Both the position numbers and the translations under genes were made by a program. Positions 9,740 to 22,099 of a DNA stretch of 64,000 nucleotides are shown here, piece by piece. This stretch comes from an uncultured Candidatus Binatia bacterium. GTDB taxonomy: Bacteria; Desulfobacterota; Binatia; Bin18. The notes below the pieces were generated by a model. The model worked only from the letters and a program-made list of their open reading frames with translations, ran no database searches and was not told the origin of the DNA. Position 1 is the stretch's first letter. Each line of letters starts with the position of its first letter. Where the stretch lies: positions 1,408,001 through 1,472,000 of the forward strand of contig OZ241744.1 of assembly GCA_965200965.1 (NCBI GenBank). The letters are read 5' to 3'.

Positions 9740-10897
9740 TCAAGAAGGTTCGTCAGTATCGTCCCCCTCAAAGAGCTCGGCCAACCTATCTTCGTAGTCC
9801 CACAGTATAGAATCGACAATTCCGTATCCGTCGCAATCAAACACAGATTCTCCGCCCTCGAACGGAGCTCCACGAATAAAGGCTGAAACAGCTACACTTT
9901 CTAAATACTCTCGCAATTCTTCAAGGCTTGTAACCGGTGTAGCCATACGGTCGTCGTCAGGATCATAAAATATGATCGTCTTATTGTTGCTGTCCCATTC
10001 AGCGCCTTCAAGCGCGCCTGAGACCGCCTCGCGTGCGTCTATTTCCCAAGGCATTTCTTCTAAATATAACTCCCACTTGGAAAGATAATCGTCCAGTATT
10101 TTATGAAGCTGAGGATGTGTGTTGTCGTAATTCTCGGTGAGACTGATGCTAGGACGGCGGTTGTGAGCGACGCAGTTACGCATCTTTTCTATGGAATCCA
10201 TCAAATTTTTTAATCCGGCTAATAGTTCCGCGTCGTCTTTGTGTTCTATGGGAACACGGTTAAACTCCTCATAAAATTTCTCGTAGGTATCTGCATTGCG
10301 AATAACTGTAAGAAGGTCATCGAGTTTAAATTTTTGTCTCTGATTAAGCTCAGCATAGTTTCCAAACGTCAGATGAAAAAATTGGTTCTCCCTTCCCACC
10401 TTCATATCATTCTCTGTCGGCTTTACCCTTGGCTTGACTGTCTCATCGCGGAGCAGATTAAAAGGCTCTTCACTCTGGTAAGCGTGTAAATAGATGATCG
10501 ACAGGACGCGGCGCAATTTCATCTCCAGCGCAAAAATCTCTTTGGCCCGCTCGGCGAGTTCAGCTTGGAGCAAAGGGTCTTCAAACTTCACCGCGTGGAT
10601 GATAGGTGGGGTATCGGACAGGGCATCAGCAAACTCCCGAACGACAGTTTCGGCAGACGTAGTTTCCTCTGGCAATTCAAGAACGAAACCTACGAGTAGG
10701 TGAGAAGTCTCTGTTCCATTACCACCAGTAGACTCCTCGCCGGAACGCCGGTGACGAATTTGGATCATGCGGTCTACGATGTCCACACCAAACTCATTCT
10801 GGTTATTCTCCAGCACTCCGGCAAGCAAGCTAGCCACTACCTGCCGGAGGTCCATTAGCGGTATCGCACGACAAGAGATAATGAATTCAAAAGTCAT
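9740..10897 (-). CDS. HEPN domain protein (Swt1/Apea-like), putative RNase
   Basis: EMKLRR...FFHLTF...RNCVAH (Rx4H); ATGA overlap with the S-subunit stop. Confidence 0.7.
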   Translation of the reverse strand: MTFEFIISCRAIPLMDLRQVVASLLAGVLENNQNEFGVDIVDRMIQIRHRRSGEESTGGNGTETSHLLVGFVLELPEETTSAETVVREFADALSDTPPIIHAVKFEDPLLQAELAERAKEIFALEMKLRRVLSIIYLHAYQSEEPFNLLRDETVKPRVKPTENDMKVGRENQFFHLTFGNYAELNQRQKFKLDDLLTVIRNADTYEKFYEEFNRVPIEHKDDAELLAGLKNLMDSIEKMRNCVAHNRRPSISLTENYDNTHPQLHKILDDYLSKWELYLEEMPWEIDAREAVSGALEGAEWDSNNKTIIFYDPDDDRMATPVTSLEELREYLESVAVSAFIRGAPFEGGESVFDCDGYGIVDSILWDYEDRLAELFEGDDTDEPS

Positions 10898-12294
10898 GGT
10901 GCGGATGGTCCTAGCAATTGCTCCTCAAACCAGCGCTTGGCCTCCTGCCAACCGGCTTCGGCCTCGGCGCGAAGGCGACGAGCCTCATTACGGCGACGGC
11001 GGAGCTCGGCGACTATTTTTTCTTGGACTTCCAGTTTGGCGACCGGAATGAGCAGATTTACCACATCGTCATTTGTGAGACGGGGATGGGTATTGCCCGT
11101 CATCATGTGGACGGTCTGGGCAAGTACCATCCGACTCCGCAGTACCGCAGCGAGATAGTCCGGCAATAATTTTCCGGCGTCCCTTACGCGGAGAACATGG
11201 AACTCGGGAGAGCAGCAACCATTTCTTTCCGCACGATGAACCTTGTTCAGATACGGCCGTAGACGCGCAAAGAGAATATCACCAACTTTATAGGTGAAAC
11301 AGGTTCCTTGAGCGGTGTCAGCGGAATCGGTCAATTCTCCTGTGTGGCTCTGAACGTGTGCGAGGCTCAAATAGTTTTCGCCGGGCGTATCGAGTTGATT
11401 CCGCTGAAAACTCACCACTTCGGAAAGCCGTGCAACCGTCAATCCCCCGGAGGCGCTATCTAGCGTACATAGAGCCCTCAGACGGTCCGGGTGATAGTAA
11501 TCTGCATTGAGTCGTCCGTCGGAACATAGCTGTGTCAAGCGAACTGCAAAGACACGGCATGAATCCTCAGACGGTAGCGTGATGCCCAGCCCATCAAGCA
11601 GGAAATCATCAATGCCGGCCAATAGTGCATTAGCCTCGGCGCGAAGACGACGAGCCGCCTCACGAGCCGCTTTTATTGATGCAACAATTTCGTTCTGGCG
11701 GGATTCCGAAAGTTCTGGAAACGGAAGAGCCTCAAGAAATGTCGCAGGGACTCGCTGCTGCCCGGCTGAACCCGTAAAGGCGTAAGTCGCAAGGCGACGA
11801 AGCGATGCCTGACTGACAAACTCCATGACGAACTCTTTGGAAATTCCAGGAGCACGCACCCTGAGAACGTGAAACTCTGTCGAACCGAACCCTACGCCAT
11901 TTGGTAGCCTGTCTACAATACACGATTTTCCGTTCTGCATACACGGCGTAATCTTCGCCCACAGGGTGTCTCCGTTGATGAAGGGAGTATAGCCCTTGCG
12001 TACTTCTTTAAGTGGCCTGTTTGTAACTGTGTATTCTCCCGTAGCACCGTCGGAAACCGCTTGCATTGGTATGAAGCCCACAAGATCGTCCTCACCAATC
12101 CCAGCTATATTGACGGGTGGATTAACATCAACATAGGCCGAAAGTGGCTTACTAGCCGTCGGATTCCTCCGAAGACCCTTCAAATAGAGTCGGAGTTCTG
12201 GCGTATGGAGAGGGACACTTAACGAAAATCCCTCTAAATTGCCCCGCTTCACCGCAAAGCACTGAGCTTTGCCCGGTTCAGCGGGGCTTAAGCG
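10894..12294 (-). CDS. restriction-modification specificity (S) subunit with two TRDs; probably reached by -1 frameshift from the upstream gene
   Basis: AKITPCMQNGK/GSTEFHVL/GSAGQQRV (TRD1), ARLRPYLNK/SPEFHVL/GNTHPRL (TRD2), helical spacers; first in-frame ATG lies inside TRD1. Confidence 0.85.
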   Translation of the reverse strand, partial: RLSPAEPGKAQCFAVKRGNLEGFSLSVPLHTPELRLYLKGLRRNPTASKPLSAYVDVNPPVNIAGIGEDDLVGFIPMQAVSDGATGEYTVTNRPLKEVRKGYTPFINGDTLWAKITPCMQNGKSCIVDRLPNGVGFGSTEFHVLRVRAPGISKEFVMEFVSQASLRRLATYAFTGSAGQQRVPATFLEALPFPELSESRQNEIVASIKAAREAARRLRAEANALLAGIDDFLLDGLGITLPSEDSCRVFAVRLTQLCSDGRLNADYYHPDRLRALCTLDSASGGLTVARLSEVVSFQRNQLDTPGENYLSLAHVQSHTGELTDSADTAQGTCFTYKVGDILFARLRPYLNKVHRAERNGCCSPEFHVLRVRDAGKLLPDYLAAVLRSRMVLAQTVHMMTGNTHPRLTNDDVVNLLIPVAKLEVQEKIVAELRRRRNEARRLRAEAEAGWQEAKRWFEEQLLGPSAP

Positions 12295-12300
12295 AAAAAA
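12241..12300 (-). promoter_or_regulatory. candidate -1 programmed ribosomal frameshift signal (T TTT TTC + 6-nt spacer + 47-nt stem-loop)
   Basis: CTT TTT TTC GCT TAA then GCCCCGCT..ACCG..GCAAAGC-TCAGT-GCTTTGC..CGGT..AGCGGGGC. Confidence 0.7.
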
Positions 12301-14303
12301 AGTGTCGGGTCTCTCTGAAACGCCCTCCACTTGCGCAACAGGCCGGTGTCGGGGATGATTTCGCGCCGGCGTTCGCTCCAGTCAGGCTTCTTTGGGTTGG
12401 CGGTGCTCCACTCGTAAGAGACGCGGTAGTCAAACAAGTCACAGCTTTGCCGCTCAATTTTCTCCTTGCCCGGCTCTTCCTTCTCAACAGTCACCTCAAA
12501 GGTTTTCCGCCCGGTGGCGTCATAGCCGATGTTGTCCGTCAAGGCCATGAAAATGGGGGCGTCGTCGGGAACGGTCTCGCCGTCCTTGAGGCGACGGAGG
12601 AAAACGAGGCTGGCCTTGACGCCGGCGTCGTAGTGCTGAAAAGCGAACTGCGGCAGGCTGACGACTGCCAGCAGTTGGAAATGCTCAAGCAGCCAGTTAC
12701 GCACGCCCTGGAGCGAGGAGTTGGTGAGAATGCCGTCAGGCAGCACCACCGCGGCACGCCCGCTGCCAGGCTTGAGGAAAGAATAGACACGTTCGAGGAA
12801 CAGGATTTCTGTCTTGACGCTGGCGCGGGCTTTGACCGCCTTGGCCCCGCTCTTCGCGCCGACTGCACCGTTTTTCTTGGCATCCGGATACTTTTTCCCG
12901 ACGTAATCCAGGAGGTCAAACTGCCCCAGATAGTCGGCACCCTTCTCTGCCCGCCTGACGACAGACCCAAAAGGCGGGTTGGTCAGAATCAGGTCAAATT
13001 TGCCTGAGGCGAGTCCCAGATTTTTGGCGCGAAGCTCTTTCAGAAAGTCCAGCGCGTCATGGCCGACAATGTTGGAGTGTCCGTCGTCATGGACGATCAT
13101 GTTCATTTTTGCCACGCGGGCCAGTTCGTCGTTGATCTCAATGCCAAACAGGTTTTTCTGGGCAAAGTCATGCCAGAATTGAAAATGTCTGGCTGTGTTG
13201 GATTTATGCTTGTGGTCCGCTTCGCGGCGAACATGGTCCAAGGCGTACAGCAGAAAGCCGCCTGAGCCACAGGCCGGGTCAAGGACCAGATGCTTGCGTT
13301 TGGGGTCAAGCACTTCCACGGCAAAGGCGATCAACTCGCGGGGTGTGAAATACTGGCCGAAGTCACCCTTGAAGAAGCCGCCCATGAACTCCTCAAAGGC
13401 AACGCCTTTGGTGTCAAGTTCGGTGCCCTGGAGCGATATGCCTTCCAGGTGTTCCACACACTGTGCCAGAACGGGCGCGTCTACATTGATGCGGTCGGTG
13501 AACACATCCGGTTCCAACTCCTTCTCATGTTCGTAAAGGCGGTGAACGCGCTCGGCAAGTTGGGCGGTCGTTTCTCCATCGCGGCGTTGAAACTCGTAGG
13601 GCTGGCCGTCTTCGCGGTCCGGGTCCTTCTCGTCACGGTTCTTGACAAAGACCAGTTTGGAGAACTCGCCAAAGGCGGCGATGGGACTGCGTTTTCCGCC
13701 CTCCCAGAGCGTTTGATGACACTTGCGGATGGCGGCGCGCAGCGCTTCGCGGGGAATGGCCGCAAGGTCGCGGCCCGGCTCGTTTTTGTGGAAGCGCCAG
13801 GGAAGCGGCTTACCATAGCGCTGGGGGATATCGGTGAGATGGTTCCTGTCCCGCTCGCCAGGTGGAAACGTGTCGAACCGCAGCAGACGGCGTGTCAGAC
13901 CGGCGATTGATCCGCAGTATGTCGCGCCAAGGCTGGCCCTGTTGCCACACGCCTGCTCAATGGACTGGCCAAACCCGCCATCGCTGATATCGGTCCGCTT
14001 GCACTCGAACACGAAATACGGAGATTTCAGCTCATCATCGTCATAGACGACAATATCGGCAAAATCGTTCGGGGTCCGGCGCGGAACGTTGACCTCAAAA
14101 CGGATGCGCTCGGGCGGGTAGTCATACTTATAGATCAGCTCCGCCCAGAACTCGGCGCGGACTTTTTCTTCCGGGTCAGCCCACCGTTCCGAATGGCTGG
14201 CCGCCTTGTAGTGGATGCGCTCGGCCCTTCCTTCGCCGGTAATTTCCGCCTTGCCCTCGGCAAGGGCGTACTCAAGGTAAGGAGGCTGTCGTGTGTCAGG
14301 CAT
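12288..14303 (-). CDS. fused restriction endonuclease (HsdR_N-type PD-(D/E)xK) - N6-adenine methyltransferase (Type IIB/IIG-like RM chain)
   Basis: PEEKVR..ADIVVY..FECKR nuclease; GQYFTP, DPACGSGGF, TNPPF, VVLPDGIL MTase motifs; no helicase motifs. Confidence 0.9.
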   Translation of the reverse strand: MPDTRQPPYLEYALAEGKAEITGEGRAERIHYKAASHSERWADPEEKVRAEFWAELIYKYDYPPERIRFEVNVPRRTPNDFADIVVYDDDELKSPYFVFECKRTDISDGGFGQSIEQACGNRASLGATYCGSIAGLTRRLLRFDTFPPGERDRNHLTDIPQRYGKPLPWRFHKNEPGRDLAAIPREALRAAIRKCHQTLWEGGKRSPIAAFGEFSKLVFVKNRDEKDPDREDGQPYEFQRRDGETTAQLAERVHRLYEHEKELEPDVFTDRINVDAPVLAQCVEHLEGISLQGTELDTKGVAFEEFMGGFFKGDFGQYFTPRELIAFAVEVLDPKRKHLVLDPACGSGGFLLYALDHVRREADHKHKSNTARHFQFWHDFAQKNLFGIEINDELARVAKMNMIVHDDGHSNIVGHDALDFLKELRAKNLGLASGKFDLILTNPPFGSVVRRAEKGADYLGQFDLLDYVGKKYPDAKKNGAVGAKSGAKAVKARASVKTEILFLERVYSFLKPGSGRAAVVLPDGILTNSSLQGVRNWLLEHFQLLAVVSLPQFAFQHYDAGVKASLVFLRRLKDGETVPDDAPIFMALTDNIGYDATGRKTFEVTVEKEEPGKEKIERQSCDLFDYRVSYEWSTANPKKPDWSERRREIIPDTGLLRKWRAFQRDPTLFFA

Positions 14304-14381: not shown

Positions 14382-15086
14382 TTAAGCCCTGAAGGTAGAC
14401 CGGATTTCTTTCCGATACATTGCTATCAGGCTGTCCTCGGGAATCTGACCCCAGATCAGCCAGTAGAGGAGTTCGTCAACAACTTCAAGAGCGTCATTGC
14501 TGAGTTTGTGCTCGGACACTTGATAAGCGTTATGGTGTGCGCCTATTGGCTGTAAGTGATCCAGCCGAAGAATTGACTCATCAGGCCCAGCTATCGGCAG
14601 CTTATCCCAAAGGAACTGTGGGTATTCGCAATGTCGAATACGCTCCACAAACCCAGGATTATATCCCCCGCGGCTGCCGTCTCTCGTTGCGCCATAGTAC
14701 GGCACTGCCAATATCGTTGGCGCAGTCGAATGCCTTGCCATACCCCTGGTAAGGGGCTGGTCAACAGGCGGGCCGCCGGAGCCGACGATCAGGCACGGCC
14801 TCTTCTTGGCCCGATAAGCGGCCCAGACTTCACCCGGATGCAAAGGCATTGCAGCAACGGGCAATTCCGTCCTCTTGAGTGGCTGACCAATCCGAAGGGG
14901 CGCTACTCGAATTGTCGCGCTGTCGTGCCGAGTGGCTTCTGCTCGGGCCAGGGGCTCAAATGTGTAGGGAACTTGGTCAATGTGCGGAACAAAGGCGGAG
15001 ACCAGCGCGCCACGACACAAAATCTTCCTGGAATTCTCTATCCACCAAGTGCTCGCAAGTGCTCGGGTGAATGAGGGACTGAACAC
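14382..15086 (-). CDS. PemK/MazF-like toxin candidate
   Basis: KKRPCLIV and SILRLDHLQPI resemble PemK/MazF signatures; directly downstream of a Panacea gene. Confidence 0.5.
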   Translation of the reverse strand: MFSPSFTRALASTWWIENSRKILCRGALVSAFVPHIDQVPYTFEPLARAEATRHDSATIRVAPLRIGQPLKRTELPVAAMPLHPGEVWAAYRAKKRPCLIVGSGGPPVDQPLTRGMARHSTAPTILAVPYYGATRDGSRGGYNPGFVERIRHCEYPQFLWDKLPIAGPDESILRLDHLQPIGAHHNAYQVSEHKLSNDALEVVDELLYWLIWGQIPEDSLIAMYRKEIRSTFRA

Positions 15087-15091
15087 AATCG

Positions 15092-15889
15092 TCAGGATAC
15101 ATCCCCGCCCTTCCTGGTGGGAGACTTCCAGACCTCATCTGAAAACTGGACGGTGTGTTCGCCTTCCGGCAAGGGGGCACCGGCGAGACTATCAAGCCAA
15201 TTCATGCCTTCGTCGTACACCTCGTCATAACGGGCATCTGGTACTGGGTTAATCAGCCTGGGAGCTTTTTTTCCCCTGTTTTTATATTTCGCTCGTAGTG
15301 CCCGCATTCGTTCTCTGAACTTTTTCTTTTGCCCAATTGATAAGCCAGCCATCTTCAACGGTTTCTGAACAGAGTCATGGATTGCGTTGTCCTCGGCGGC
15401 AACGGTAAAATCCAGAGACTCATTCGGTGCTGCGGATAGCATGGGTTCCGTACCATAGACGGCATGCAGTAGACTGTGCGTGTCTTGCCCGAATTGGCGC
15501 ACCTCTCCTTTCAGGCCCGAGATTATCTCAAATGGGAGTTGGCTCTCCAACTCCTCCAGCAGCCGCCCGTCACGCAGATGCCAACGAACCCAATCCTGCC
15601 TGTCCTCATAGTCGCTCTGCAACGACCGTCTCTCCGCGCTGATTGCCCTCAGCGCTGGCTCAATGCGCGCATGAACAGACAGAGACCAAGGACCAAATTT
15701 GTAGAATTGCCATTCGGTACCGGTAAAAATAGCTCCATTGTTGCGTTTCGCGTGGAAAAGGTCAGCCAAGTAGACATACTTGACCAGGTGAATTGGGCCA
15801 AGCTGACGATCAGAGAACTCATCTTGCTCTCCGGCAACCAGCAACGCGTACTGGAGCAACACATCAACACGGGAGAGGTCTGTCGGCAT
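15092..15889 (-). CDS. Panacea (DUF4065/SocA-like) antitoxin domain protein
   Basis: HLVKYVYLADL...FTG..W.FYKFGPWS...VYGTEPM. Confidence 0.75.
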   Translation of the reverse strand: MPTDLSRVDVLLQYALLVAGEQDEFSDRQLGPIHLVKYVYLADLFHAKRNNGAIFTGTEWQFYKFGPWSLSVHARIEPALRAISAERRSLQSDYEDRQDWVRWHLRDGRLLEELESQLPFEIISGLKGEVRQFGQDTHSLLHAVYGTEPMLSAAPNESLDFTVAAEDNAIHDSVQKPLKMAGLSIGQKKKFRERMRALRAKYKNRGKKAPRLINPVPDARYDEVYDEGMNWLDSLAGAPLPEGEHTVQFSDEVWKSPTRKGGDVS

Positions 15890-16023
15890 CAATTCGACTC
15901 ACAGGGATGAGAATCAGAGCGGGGGAAGGTGAACATCGAACATCCCCTGACGACGATGTTCCTCATGCGCTTCTCCCGGAGTGGCGAGCCTACCAGAACC
16001 GTCAGGCTGTGCCTACCCGTGGC

Positions 16024-20104: not shown

Positions 20105-22099
20105 ATGCGTCGTCCTGTCCTATTTGCATGCCTGTTCACCGTCCTGTTCGGAAGCAGCCCGAGTTGGAGCCAGACCACCTCAGCCTCCCCCTCAGCGCCC
20201 ACCCTGACGAGCCTAGCGAGCGAGGTCGCAACCTTGAAGGCTACTGTCACTACCTTGCGGACCACCGTGGCCAAGCTGACCCGCTACATTCAGGTTATCG
20301 AGAATGCAGCCACCAGCACCTACCATGGCCTGAGCAGTCCGCATGTGGTCTTCACCGGGGCCAATGTCCACATCCGCAGCGGGTCGTCGGGGGTGACCCA
20401 TAAAGGACGGACCGTGAACGATGGCTGGGTCTCCGAACCCCTGGGGCTGGGCAACCTGATTATCGGCTACAACGAGGCGAACACTTGGCCGACTGCGGAT
20501 ACGGCCCAGCGGGGCGGCTCGCACAACTTGGTGATCGGGAGGTATCATCAGTACCCCACCTCTGGTGGGTTGGTGGCGGGGGAGGATAACGTCATCTCCG
20601 GCCATGCGGCGAGCGTGAGCGGCGGCACTCGGAACACAGCCAGCGGTCCTGCGGCGAGCGTGAGCGGCGGCACTCAGAACACAGCCAGCGGTCCTGCGGC
20701 GAGCGTGAGCGGGGGCTACCGCAACCGCTCCAGCGGCTATCACACCAGCGTGAGCGGCGGCGGTCAGAACACGGCCAGCGGCTCTAACTCCAGCGTGAGC
20801 GGCGGCCATGCCAACACGGCGACGAGCATCGCGGCGAGCGTGAGCGGGGGGCTAGAGAACACGGCCAGCGGCTCTAACTCCAGCGTGAGCGGGGGGCTAG
20901 AGAACACGGCCAGCGGCTCTAACTCCAGCGTGAGCGGCGGCCGTCTGAACAGGGCCAACGGAGGGAACTCCAGCGTGAGCGGCGGCCACAGCAACACGAC
21001 CCGGCATTATGACTCCAGCGTGAGCGGCGGCCATGCCAACACGGCCAGCGGCTGGGCGGCGAGCGTGAGCGGCGGCACTCAGAACACAGCCAGCGGCGCT
21101 GACTCCAGCGTGAGCGGCGGCACTCAGAACACAGCCAGCGGTCCTGCGGCAAGCGTGAGCGGCGGCTACCGCAACCGCTCCAGCGGCTATCACACCAGCG
21201 TGAGCGGCGGCGGTCAGAACACGGCCAGCGGCGCTGACTCCAGCGTGAGCGGCGGCGGTCAGAACACGGCCAGCGGCTCTAACTCCAGCGTGAGCGGGGG
21301 GCTAGAGAACACGGCCAGCGGCTCTAACTCCAGCGTGAGCGGCGGCCGTCTGAACAGGGCCAGCGGAGGGAACTCCAGCGTGAGCGGCGGCCACAGCAAC
21401 ACGACCCGGCATTATGACTCCAGCGTGAGCGGCGGCCATGCCAACACGGCCAGCGGCTGGGCGGCGAGCGTGAGCGGCGGCGGTCAGAACACGGCCAGCG
21501 GCGCTGACTCCAGTGTGAGCGGCGGCACTCAGAACACAGCCAGCGGCGCTGACTCCAGCGTGAGCGGCGGCGTCGGCAACATGGCCAGCGGCTCTAACTC
21601 CAGCGTGAGCGGGGGTGCCAACAACACGGCCAGCAGCCGCCAGTCGAGTGTGAGCGGGGGCCTCAGCAACACGGCCAGCGGTGCTCACTCCAGTGTGCTC
21701 GGTGGCGGCCGCAACACGGCCAACGGCTTTAACTCCAGCGTGAGCGGGGGTGCCCGCAACACGGCCAGTGGTCAGGCGACGAGCCTGAGCGGGGGCTGGG
21801 GCAACACGGCAGGTGACTATGGGGCCAGCGTCAGCGGCGGCATTCGCAACAGGGCCCTGGGCCGGATGGCCAGTGTGAGCGGCGGCAGGGACAACAGGGC
21901 CCTGGCTAATGAATCCAGCGTGAGCGGGGGCAAGAACAACACGGCGATCGGGAAGCGGAGCAGCATCAGCGGGGGCGAAAACCAGACGGTCAACGGCGAC
22001 CTCTGGTCCTGCTGGGGCTGGGGGGCCGTGCCTCGCCCGCTCGTCCCGTCCAGAGACAGTCCCTTTCGCCAACATTCCGTCGGGCTGTTGCGCCCATAG
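20105..22099 (+). CDS. secreted protein with about 33 14-residue SVSGGxxNxASGxx repeats (beta-roll/adhesin-like)
   Basis: signal peptide, short coiled coil, GLGNLIIGYNE/GSHNLVIG lead-in, long repeat array. Confidence 0.85.
   Translation: MRRPVLFACLFTVLFGSSPSWSQTTSASPSAPTLTSLASEVATLKATVTTLRTTVAKLTRYIQVIENAATSTYHGLSSPHVVFTGANVHIRSGSSGVTHKGRTVNDGWVSEPLGLGNLIIGYNEANTWPTADTAQRGGSHNLVIGRYHQYPTSGGLVAGEDNVISGHAASVSGGTRNTASGPAASVSGGTQNTASGPAASVSGGYRNRSSGYHTSVSGGGQNTASGSNSSVSGGHANTATSIAASVSGGLENTASGSNSSVSGGLENTASGSNSSVSGGRLNRANGGNSSVSGGHSNTTRHYDSSVSGGHANTASGWAASVSGGTQNTASGADSSVSGGTQNTASGPAASVSGGYRNRSSGYHTSVSGGGQNTASGADSSVSGGGQNTASGSNSSVSGGLENTASGSNSSVSGGRLNRASGGNSSVSGGHSNTTRHYDSSVSGGHANTASGWAASVSGGGQNTASGADSSVSGGTQNTASGADSSVSGGVGNMASGSNSSVSGGANNTASSRQSSVSGGLSNTASGAHSSVLGGGRNTANGFNSSVSGGARNTASGQATSLSGGWGNTAGDYGASVSGGIRNRALGRMASVSGGRDNRALANESSVSGGKNNTAIGKRSSISGGENQTVNGDLWSCWGWGAVPRPLVPSRDSPFRQHSVGLLRP
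20590..21990 (+). repeat. 42-bp coding tandem repeat array with higher-order block duplications
   Basis: recurring agcgtgagcggcgg..aacacggccagcgg at 42-bp period. Confidence 0.9.

Follow-up and report, generated by a model that had tools for sequence, protein, structure and literature searches.

A conserved candidate −1 frameshift signal between the RM and S genes of a Type IIB-like restriction-modification locus

Restriction-modification enzymes that join nuclease and methyltransferase in one chain (RM) come in several arrangements with their target recognition domains (TRDs). BsaXI and BcgI pair a motor-less RM chain with a specificity subunit (S) of two TRDs, and the stoichiometry of BsaXI is (RM)2S (PMC11997821; here and below, papers are cited for particular passages). 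AloI, CjeI and TstI are single open reading frames (ORFs) with an RM plus two TRD layout, and the ratio of one RM to two TRDs in such single-chain Type IIB enzymes has been called a mystery (PMC3874165). HaeIV is a homodimer with one specificity domain and a symmetric site (PMC4081073). An engineered fusion of the methylase (M) and S of EcoKI, called 'Type IMS', reproduces M2S1 as M plus M-S, and free M had to be added in vitro (PMC3510504). Here we analyse an RM-S locus in a stretch of 64,000 nucleotides (the window) from an uncultured Candidatus Binatia bacterium (assembly GCA_965200965.1, contig OZ241744.1, positions 1,408,001 to 1,472,000), in which S lies in the −1 frame behind what looks like a ribosomal frameshift signal.

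Such signals are well described elsewhere. In E. coli dnaX, in the IS3 family and in csoS2, a slippery heptamer, followed 5-8 nt on by a structure on its 3' side, sets the ratio of two products that assemble together (PMC4066793, PMC5009743). In E. coli, heptamers of the form H_HH.U_UU.Y count among those with the highest efficiency, and stimulators begin 5-8 nt downstream (PMC4066793). The junction in the window resembles these cases, but its heptamer is U_UUU_UUC and not A_AAA_AAG, it has no clear Shine-Dalgarno (SD) stimulator, and it sits in a defence enzyme; the slip would lengthen the protein, as in IS3 and unlike in E. coli dnaX. The RM gene ends with CCG ACA CTT TTT TTC GCT TAA, which contains the heptamer T_TTT_TTC (12300-12294), and a hairpin (12287-12241) begins exactly 6 nt past it. 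The features of the junction and of the two genes are the following.

12288..14303, minus strand: RM gene, 671 aa, HSDR_N_2 nuclease plus N6-adenine gamma-type methyltransferase, motor domain absent
12294..12300, minus strand: slippery heptamer U_UUU_UUC (X_XXY_YYZ), on which tRNA-Phe pairs in both frames
12288..12293, minus strand: 6-nt spacer GCT TAA, containing the RM stop codon, read from the sequence
12241..12287, minus strand: 47-nt RNA hairpin of the stimulatory type, overlapping the start of S coding, from folding and covariation
10894..12294, minus strand: S coding region of 466 codons, −1 frame, made up of two TRD halves, from specificity-subunit models
about 12294-11575 and 11574-10897, minus strand: the TRD halves of S, from profiles and alignment
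12328..12330, minus strand: S-frame GTG lying 12 codons 5' of the slip site, the main rival start, with a weak SD

We propose that the hairpin would make a ribosome pause while tRNA-Phe occupies both of its sites, that part of the ribosomes would slip by −1 into the S frame, and that the others would terminate one codon on. One start codon would then give an RM chain of 671 aa and an RM-S chain of 1136 aa, and the pairing of RM with RM-S would place two RM units against two TRDs, the equivalent of (RM)2S; a slip near 50% would suit such a 1:1 pair. We put the probability of this reading, in which programmed −1 ribosomal frameshifting yields RM and RM-S chains that pair as a BsaXI/BcgI-like (RM)2S, at roughly three in four. 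The slip and its efficiency, the heterodimer, and the methylation and cleavage of a bipartite site are predictions from sequence. A recoding reading of this junction had been made by a model from the letters of the window alone (the sequence-only reading), and our results support it, with the slip itself and the pairing of RM with RM-S kept as predictions. The heptamer, the 6-nt spacing, the 47-nt hairpin and the −1 frame of S that it had described were all reproduced, and the lengths that it had given for the two chains (671 and ~1136 aa) agree with the ORF coordinates. Of the stems that it had drawn, the middle one (ACCG/CGGT) does not stand, because the inner stem already takes up its C, which leaves ACC/GGU (3 bp) in the middle.

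The locus is closest to BsaXI, which is its best match in both sequence and fold. The N-terminal HSDR_N_2 domain of RM has a D at about 84 and ECK at 100-102, the methyltransferase has motif I at about 342 and NPPF at 442, and these are candidate catalytic residues. The nearest solved relative of RM is RM.BsaXI (E 3e-34), and the −1 frame matches specificity-subunit models, with two TRDs of Type I-like S. Nuclease and N6-methyltransferase share one chain without a translocase, as expected of Type IIB. No motor hsdR is linked to the locus, the hsdR genes of the genome being more than 140 kb away, unlike in classical Type I systems, and the flanks retrieved contain no DEAH-type ORF of at least 800 aa. 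We therefore take the locus, in which nuclease and methylase are fused, S has two TRDs and a linked motor is absent, to work like a Type IIB system, which would be predicted to cleave on both sides of its site.

RM has 671 aa, against 916 aa in BsaXI, with about 22% identity (measured via a homologue, P0079). In contrast to BsaXI and BcgI, S has no conserved start and stands behind a frameshift cassette, and a covalent bond would tie it to one RM chain of the pair. In layout, the predicted RM-S chain matches AloI, CjeI and TstI, but these are single ORFs, whereas the mRNA of our locus would additionally supply free RM. HaeIV differs from the window locus, in which two TRDs are present and S is not fused in frame. 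The EcoKI M-S fusion is artificial and belongs to a Type I system with an HsdR motor, and the natural EcoKI junction uses translational coupling and no programmed slip; the 'frameshift' mentioned in passages of two EcoKI-related papers is a gene overlap removed by engineering. We also considered MADS, because RM matches NF047738 (MAD2) with 302 bits and S matches NF047740 (MAD5) with 44 bits, but rejected it: the cut-offs (720 and 400) are far above these scores, and no MADS model matched any of the three flanking genes tested.

In the window, the hairpin folds at −32.4 kcal/mol (z −5.5), and none of 200 shuffled sequences was equally stable. None of the other TTTTTT[A/C] sites of the genome (1028 in all) has so stable a fold at +6. 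No Rfam family matched at the RM/S junction. A transcription terminator was rejected, as the U run lies 5' of the hairpin and, on the opposite strand, A's follow it. The junction could also be an assembly error, or the gene could be a fused one undergoing phase variation by slipped-strand mispairing in the T tract. Homopolymers are error-prone, and phase-variable restriction-modification genes are known (PMC3711429, PMC4889913). Yet the tract has seven T's, not the eight that an assembly indel would have hidden, in contigs from four public runs of two studies, none of which has an indel at the junction (the contigs of two of these runs are identical to the window over its whole length and may be its source, and contigs drop rare variants). 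In the homologues described below, the hairpin covaries, and in-frame forms differ from the others by the loss of a TRD, which goes beyond tract length. We regard this explanation as barely credible.

The set of homologues comprises 79 loci kept from a scan of genome contigs (best 80 of 97 matches) and 32 loci from metagenome contigs; no relative was found in viral contigs. The resulting junctions number 101 including the window, with two identical pairs, and span about 15 phyla according to tree labels. Microcystis and Thiobaca are among the cultured carriers. Eight loci in which the end of RM is missing (L048, L053, L069, L070, L071, L105, L107, L110) and one whose contig stops at the stop codon (L084) were excluded, and two in-frame loci (L003, L051) were tallied separately. 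The heptamer T_TTT_TT[C/A/T] is present in 99 of the 101 junctions (TTTTTTC in 89, TTTTTTA in 7, TTTTTTT in 3) and broken in two. Among the 97 loci of 300 codons or more, locus-specific codon usage predicts 8.6 with NNT-TTT ahead of the A-site codon, and T-TTT-TTY occurs at only 6 of 102 other Phe-Phe pairs of the same genes. The heptamer is thus under nucleotide-level constraint beyond protein coding, and the conserved heptamer that the sequence-only reading had proposed to look for is found. A TRD match is present at 100 junctions, and at each of them S occupies the −1 frame. The identity of the RM stop codon varies (TAA, TAG or TGA), and in L078, L079 and L103 the stop is displaced while the hairpin remains 6 nt from the heptamer. 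In these variants (L078:4984-5055, L079:4969-5040, L103:3053-3124), the stop follows directly after a T7 heptamer or lies five codons on, inside the hairpin. Three other loci were examined as hidden fusions and rejected: their −1 frame, open far upstream, is explained in L009 and L056 by a very low frequency of T at third codon positions and in L044 by a frameshift inside RM.

Slippage of RNA polymerase could add one U and give a mixed pool of mRNAs encoding RM and RM-S. The run of six to seven T's is compatible with it, and UUUUUUU is prone to transcriptional indels (PMC4066793). In most loci, however, the run is limited to six T's and holds a fixed codon phase, and the conserved structure, placed 3' of it at a distance that suits a ribosome, would still be untranscribed when the polymerase crosses the run. 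No RNA run was among the sequencing runs listed as containing the locus. We consider this explanation very unlikely.

The hairpin is conserved in position, stability and pairing. Of 72 genome loci, 67 place its fold at +6 within the top 5% of local windows, and its median over 100 loci is −27.9 kcal/mol. In an alignment of 73 rows, 82.9% of cells are paired, against 40-47% in controls with a slid structure, and cells in which both sides have changed number 100, against 40 in shuffles (none of 500 as high), being found in 11 of the 18 pairs; these rows are the 73 of 100 junctions picked for the 47-nt outer stem, which favours the latter, and the relatives are not independent, which can inflate covariation scores and makes Fisher values overstate. 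RNAalifold retains just the outer 8 pairs. The same protein motif occurs before TRD2 and provides a control: the mean there is −13.3, against −27.2 at TRD1, and the latter is stronger in 83 of 86 genes. A hairpin that covaries and is kept at +6, as the sequence-only reading would have it, is thus what the homologues display.

S could be translated separately from the GTG at 12330, or from another weak start, by translational coupling in the manner of BcgI and BsaXI, and the heptamer could result from dual coding. The −12 position of the S frame is GTG or ATG in 76 of 95 loci, and the frame is open from there to the slip site in 60 of the 95, including the window; −1-frame stops just upstream are also somewhat rarer than in control windows (23/95 against 33%, the controls being unmatched in composition). 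In two remote homologues on plasmids, with about 30% identity, S starts at an ordinary overlapping ATG near the end of RM and the signal is absent. But the −12 codon is a by-product of a conserved Trp codon of RM and vanishes when the residue changes. Its SD pairing has a median of −2.5 across loci, against −6.0 at the RM start of the window. Moreover, a stop intervenes between the −12 codon and the slip site in 23 of 95 loci, all of which still have heptamer and hairpin. In 20 of 95 loci there is no ATG, GTG or TTG from the upstream −1 stop (up to 40 codons back) to codon +11; all 20 keep the heptamer and most have a long open S frame. Just 4 of the 101 junctions have a start codon (ATG, GTG or TTG) in the S frame over the RM stop. 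Separate translation of S would also leave unexplained why the hairpin is fixed at +6 and why hairpin loss is paired with ATG gain, as described below. We judge it quite unlikely.

In the window itself, the first ATG of the S frame is codon 76 (position 12066), which agrees with the earlier statement that no ATG occurs until well inside TRD1. The accompanying claim that S has no SD-backed start had overlooked two in-frame GTGs with a weak SD, one at 12330, 12 codons 5' of the slip site, and one at 12252, within the hairpin; their anti-SD pairing is −1.7, against −6.0 for the RM start.

In relatives, two other routes seem to lead to the same supply: S acquires an ATG of its own and the hairpin decays, or a TRD is lost and RM is fused in frame to the remaining one, an arrangement that would form a HaeIV-like homodimer. 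All three loci without the hairpin (L061, L097, L102), which occupy two places in the tree, have an ATG at most 6 codons into S, against 2 of 97 others. The two in-frame DNA loci (L003, L051) each join RM to a single TRD, and their hairpin is weakened. Among long homologues (best 120 of 2578), 111 have one TRD, five have two and four have none, and of the 23 fusions aligned through the end of RM in this set, 21 have one TRD. Conversely, of the 84 loci with a heptamer that could be classified, 82 have two TRDs (a further 13 have short flanks and two are unclear). In a quick tree, the fusions sit within groups of signal-bearing loci at several positions, two of them with starred support, and the in-frame junction of P0079, P0050, P0123 and L051 is that of the slip product (PTPFFRVSP in P0079). 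The alignment-based fold of P0079 (predicted local distance difference test score, pLDDT, 89; predicted template modelling score, pTM, 0.85) has BsaXI chains as top PDB matches; it was used in place of a single-sequence fold of the L051 fusion, which was meaningless (pLDDT 34.5). Coupled-start and fused homologues are derived exceptions that have lost the hairpin or a TRD, which answers two doubts attached to the sequence-only reading: loci with an independent S start are few, nested and without hairpin, and simple fusions exist as nested exceptions. As natural controls, the loci without hairpin and the one-TRD fusions fit a role of the signal in stoichiometry.

Frameshifting could be real and RM-S act alone, as an oligomer of the AloI/TstI kind, in which case the slip would set the dose of recognition-competent chain and free RM would be a by-product or regulator. 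Single-chain Type IIB enzymes with two TRDs do exist, TstI being a homotetramer without free RM (PMC4027205), and two of the 23 close fusions (P0004, P0129) have two TRDs. However, an in-frame fusion is only one base away, and yet those that arose, at several places in the tree, have a single TRD in the other 21 proteins and in both DNA loci; the engineered EcoKI M-S fusion, too, requires free M in vitro (PMC3510504). We hold this explanation to be unlikely.

Some of these observations weigh against programmed frameshifting with an RM:RM-S pair: the selected and non-independent rows of the covariation alignment, the frequent and often open −12 codon with its scarcity of −1-frame stops, the TstI precedent and the two-TRD fusions. 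Three more belong with them. Two loci (L001, L040) keep the signal yet have a single TRD. An older comparison in E. coli placed U_UUU_UUA and U_UUU_UUU far below A_AAA_AAG (PMC5009743). Finally, no clear SD stimulator stands upstream of the slip site: the pairing there is −3.6 in the window, and its mild enrichment across loci is explained by Lys-Asp codons.

With less assurance than for the reading proposed above, we think it likely that these loci form a widespread family with one start, a slip of roughly 50% and an obligatory RM:RM-S heterodimer. Its genes would switch among three grammars, each with one RM for every TRD: the slip onto a two-TRD S, an S that starts at an ATG of its own, and an in-frame fusion that has a single TRD.

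Loss of a TRD may be eased by a repeat within S, whose copies in the window are the following.

11633..11664: 32-nt direct repeat, copy ending TRD1, 88% identity to the other copy
10961..10992: 32-nt direct repeat, copy ending TRD2

If the two copies recombined, one TRD would be lost, and L001 and L003 have the single-TRD form. An apparent 'joint' in the comparison of contigs is an effect of this repeat and not a deletion. One chromosome carries two near-identical signal-bearing RM genes, one with a two-TRD S (L039) and the other with a single-TRD S (L040). Short S frames behind the signal were considered as half-S genes and rejected, since most are two-TRD genes that indels or insertions have disrupted. 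In five loci (L002, L004, L011, L027, L034), S is split by about 1-2.3 kb and its remainder resumes downstream, possibly because of insertion elements.

The surroundings of the locus resemble an acquired island: GC content is 49-58% in the block 9.7-15.9 kb, against 61-66% in its flanks. The locus is carried by just one of 40 related genomes. Downstream of S lies one further gene.

9740..10897, minus strand: 385-aa gene, ATGA overlap with the S stop, R-x4-H motif, a HEPN-like lead

Homologues of this gene stand 3' of S in 45 of the 111 retrieved loci, many of which have short flanks. It has no match in Pfam, PADLOC or NCBIfam, and its ESM Atlas neighbours are unnamed or have HEPN_Swt1 on 12-13% of members; its product is a possible RM-linked HEPN RNase. 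Two ORFs directly 5' of RM on the same strand (14382-15086 and 15092-15892, minus) match no family. Further away, an ORF of 664 aa (20105-22099, plus) has many short 'NTASG..SSVSGG' repeats behind a start that resembles a signal peptide, and probably encodes a surface repeat protein.

To our knowledge, few chromosomal bacterial genes use −1 ribosomal frameshifting productively. An earlier mention of the junction could lie in a survey of disrupted bacterial ORFs reportedly published in 2011. Programmed ribosomal frameshifting between RM and S is undescribed in the full-text literature that we searched through titles, abstract openings and passages, including passages of PMC6158711 and bioRxiv 2025.10.21.683720 (subscription journals, REBASE, GeneTack and some supplements lay outside this scope). 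A 'DNA methylase' cluster, obtained with a Streptococcus query, does appear in PMC3711429. The locus apparently combines two known kinds of element, a recoding signal and a Type IIB-like defence locus, in a way that has not been described, and the alignments indicate that this strongly conserved recoding signal is real.

If our reading is true, a common family of anti-phage enzymes sets its subunit ratio through recoding. S would have no true start in these loci, so that automatic gene calls would be wrong there, and attempts to clone RM and S separately, or to fuse them in frame, could fail predictably. The puzzle of one RM to two TRDs in Type IIB enzymes becomes testable with point mutants. 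The family would then be a natural 'Type IMS' architecture, and would give a handle on how the second RM is supplied in single-chain Type IIB enzymes.

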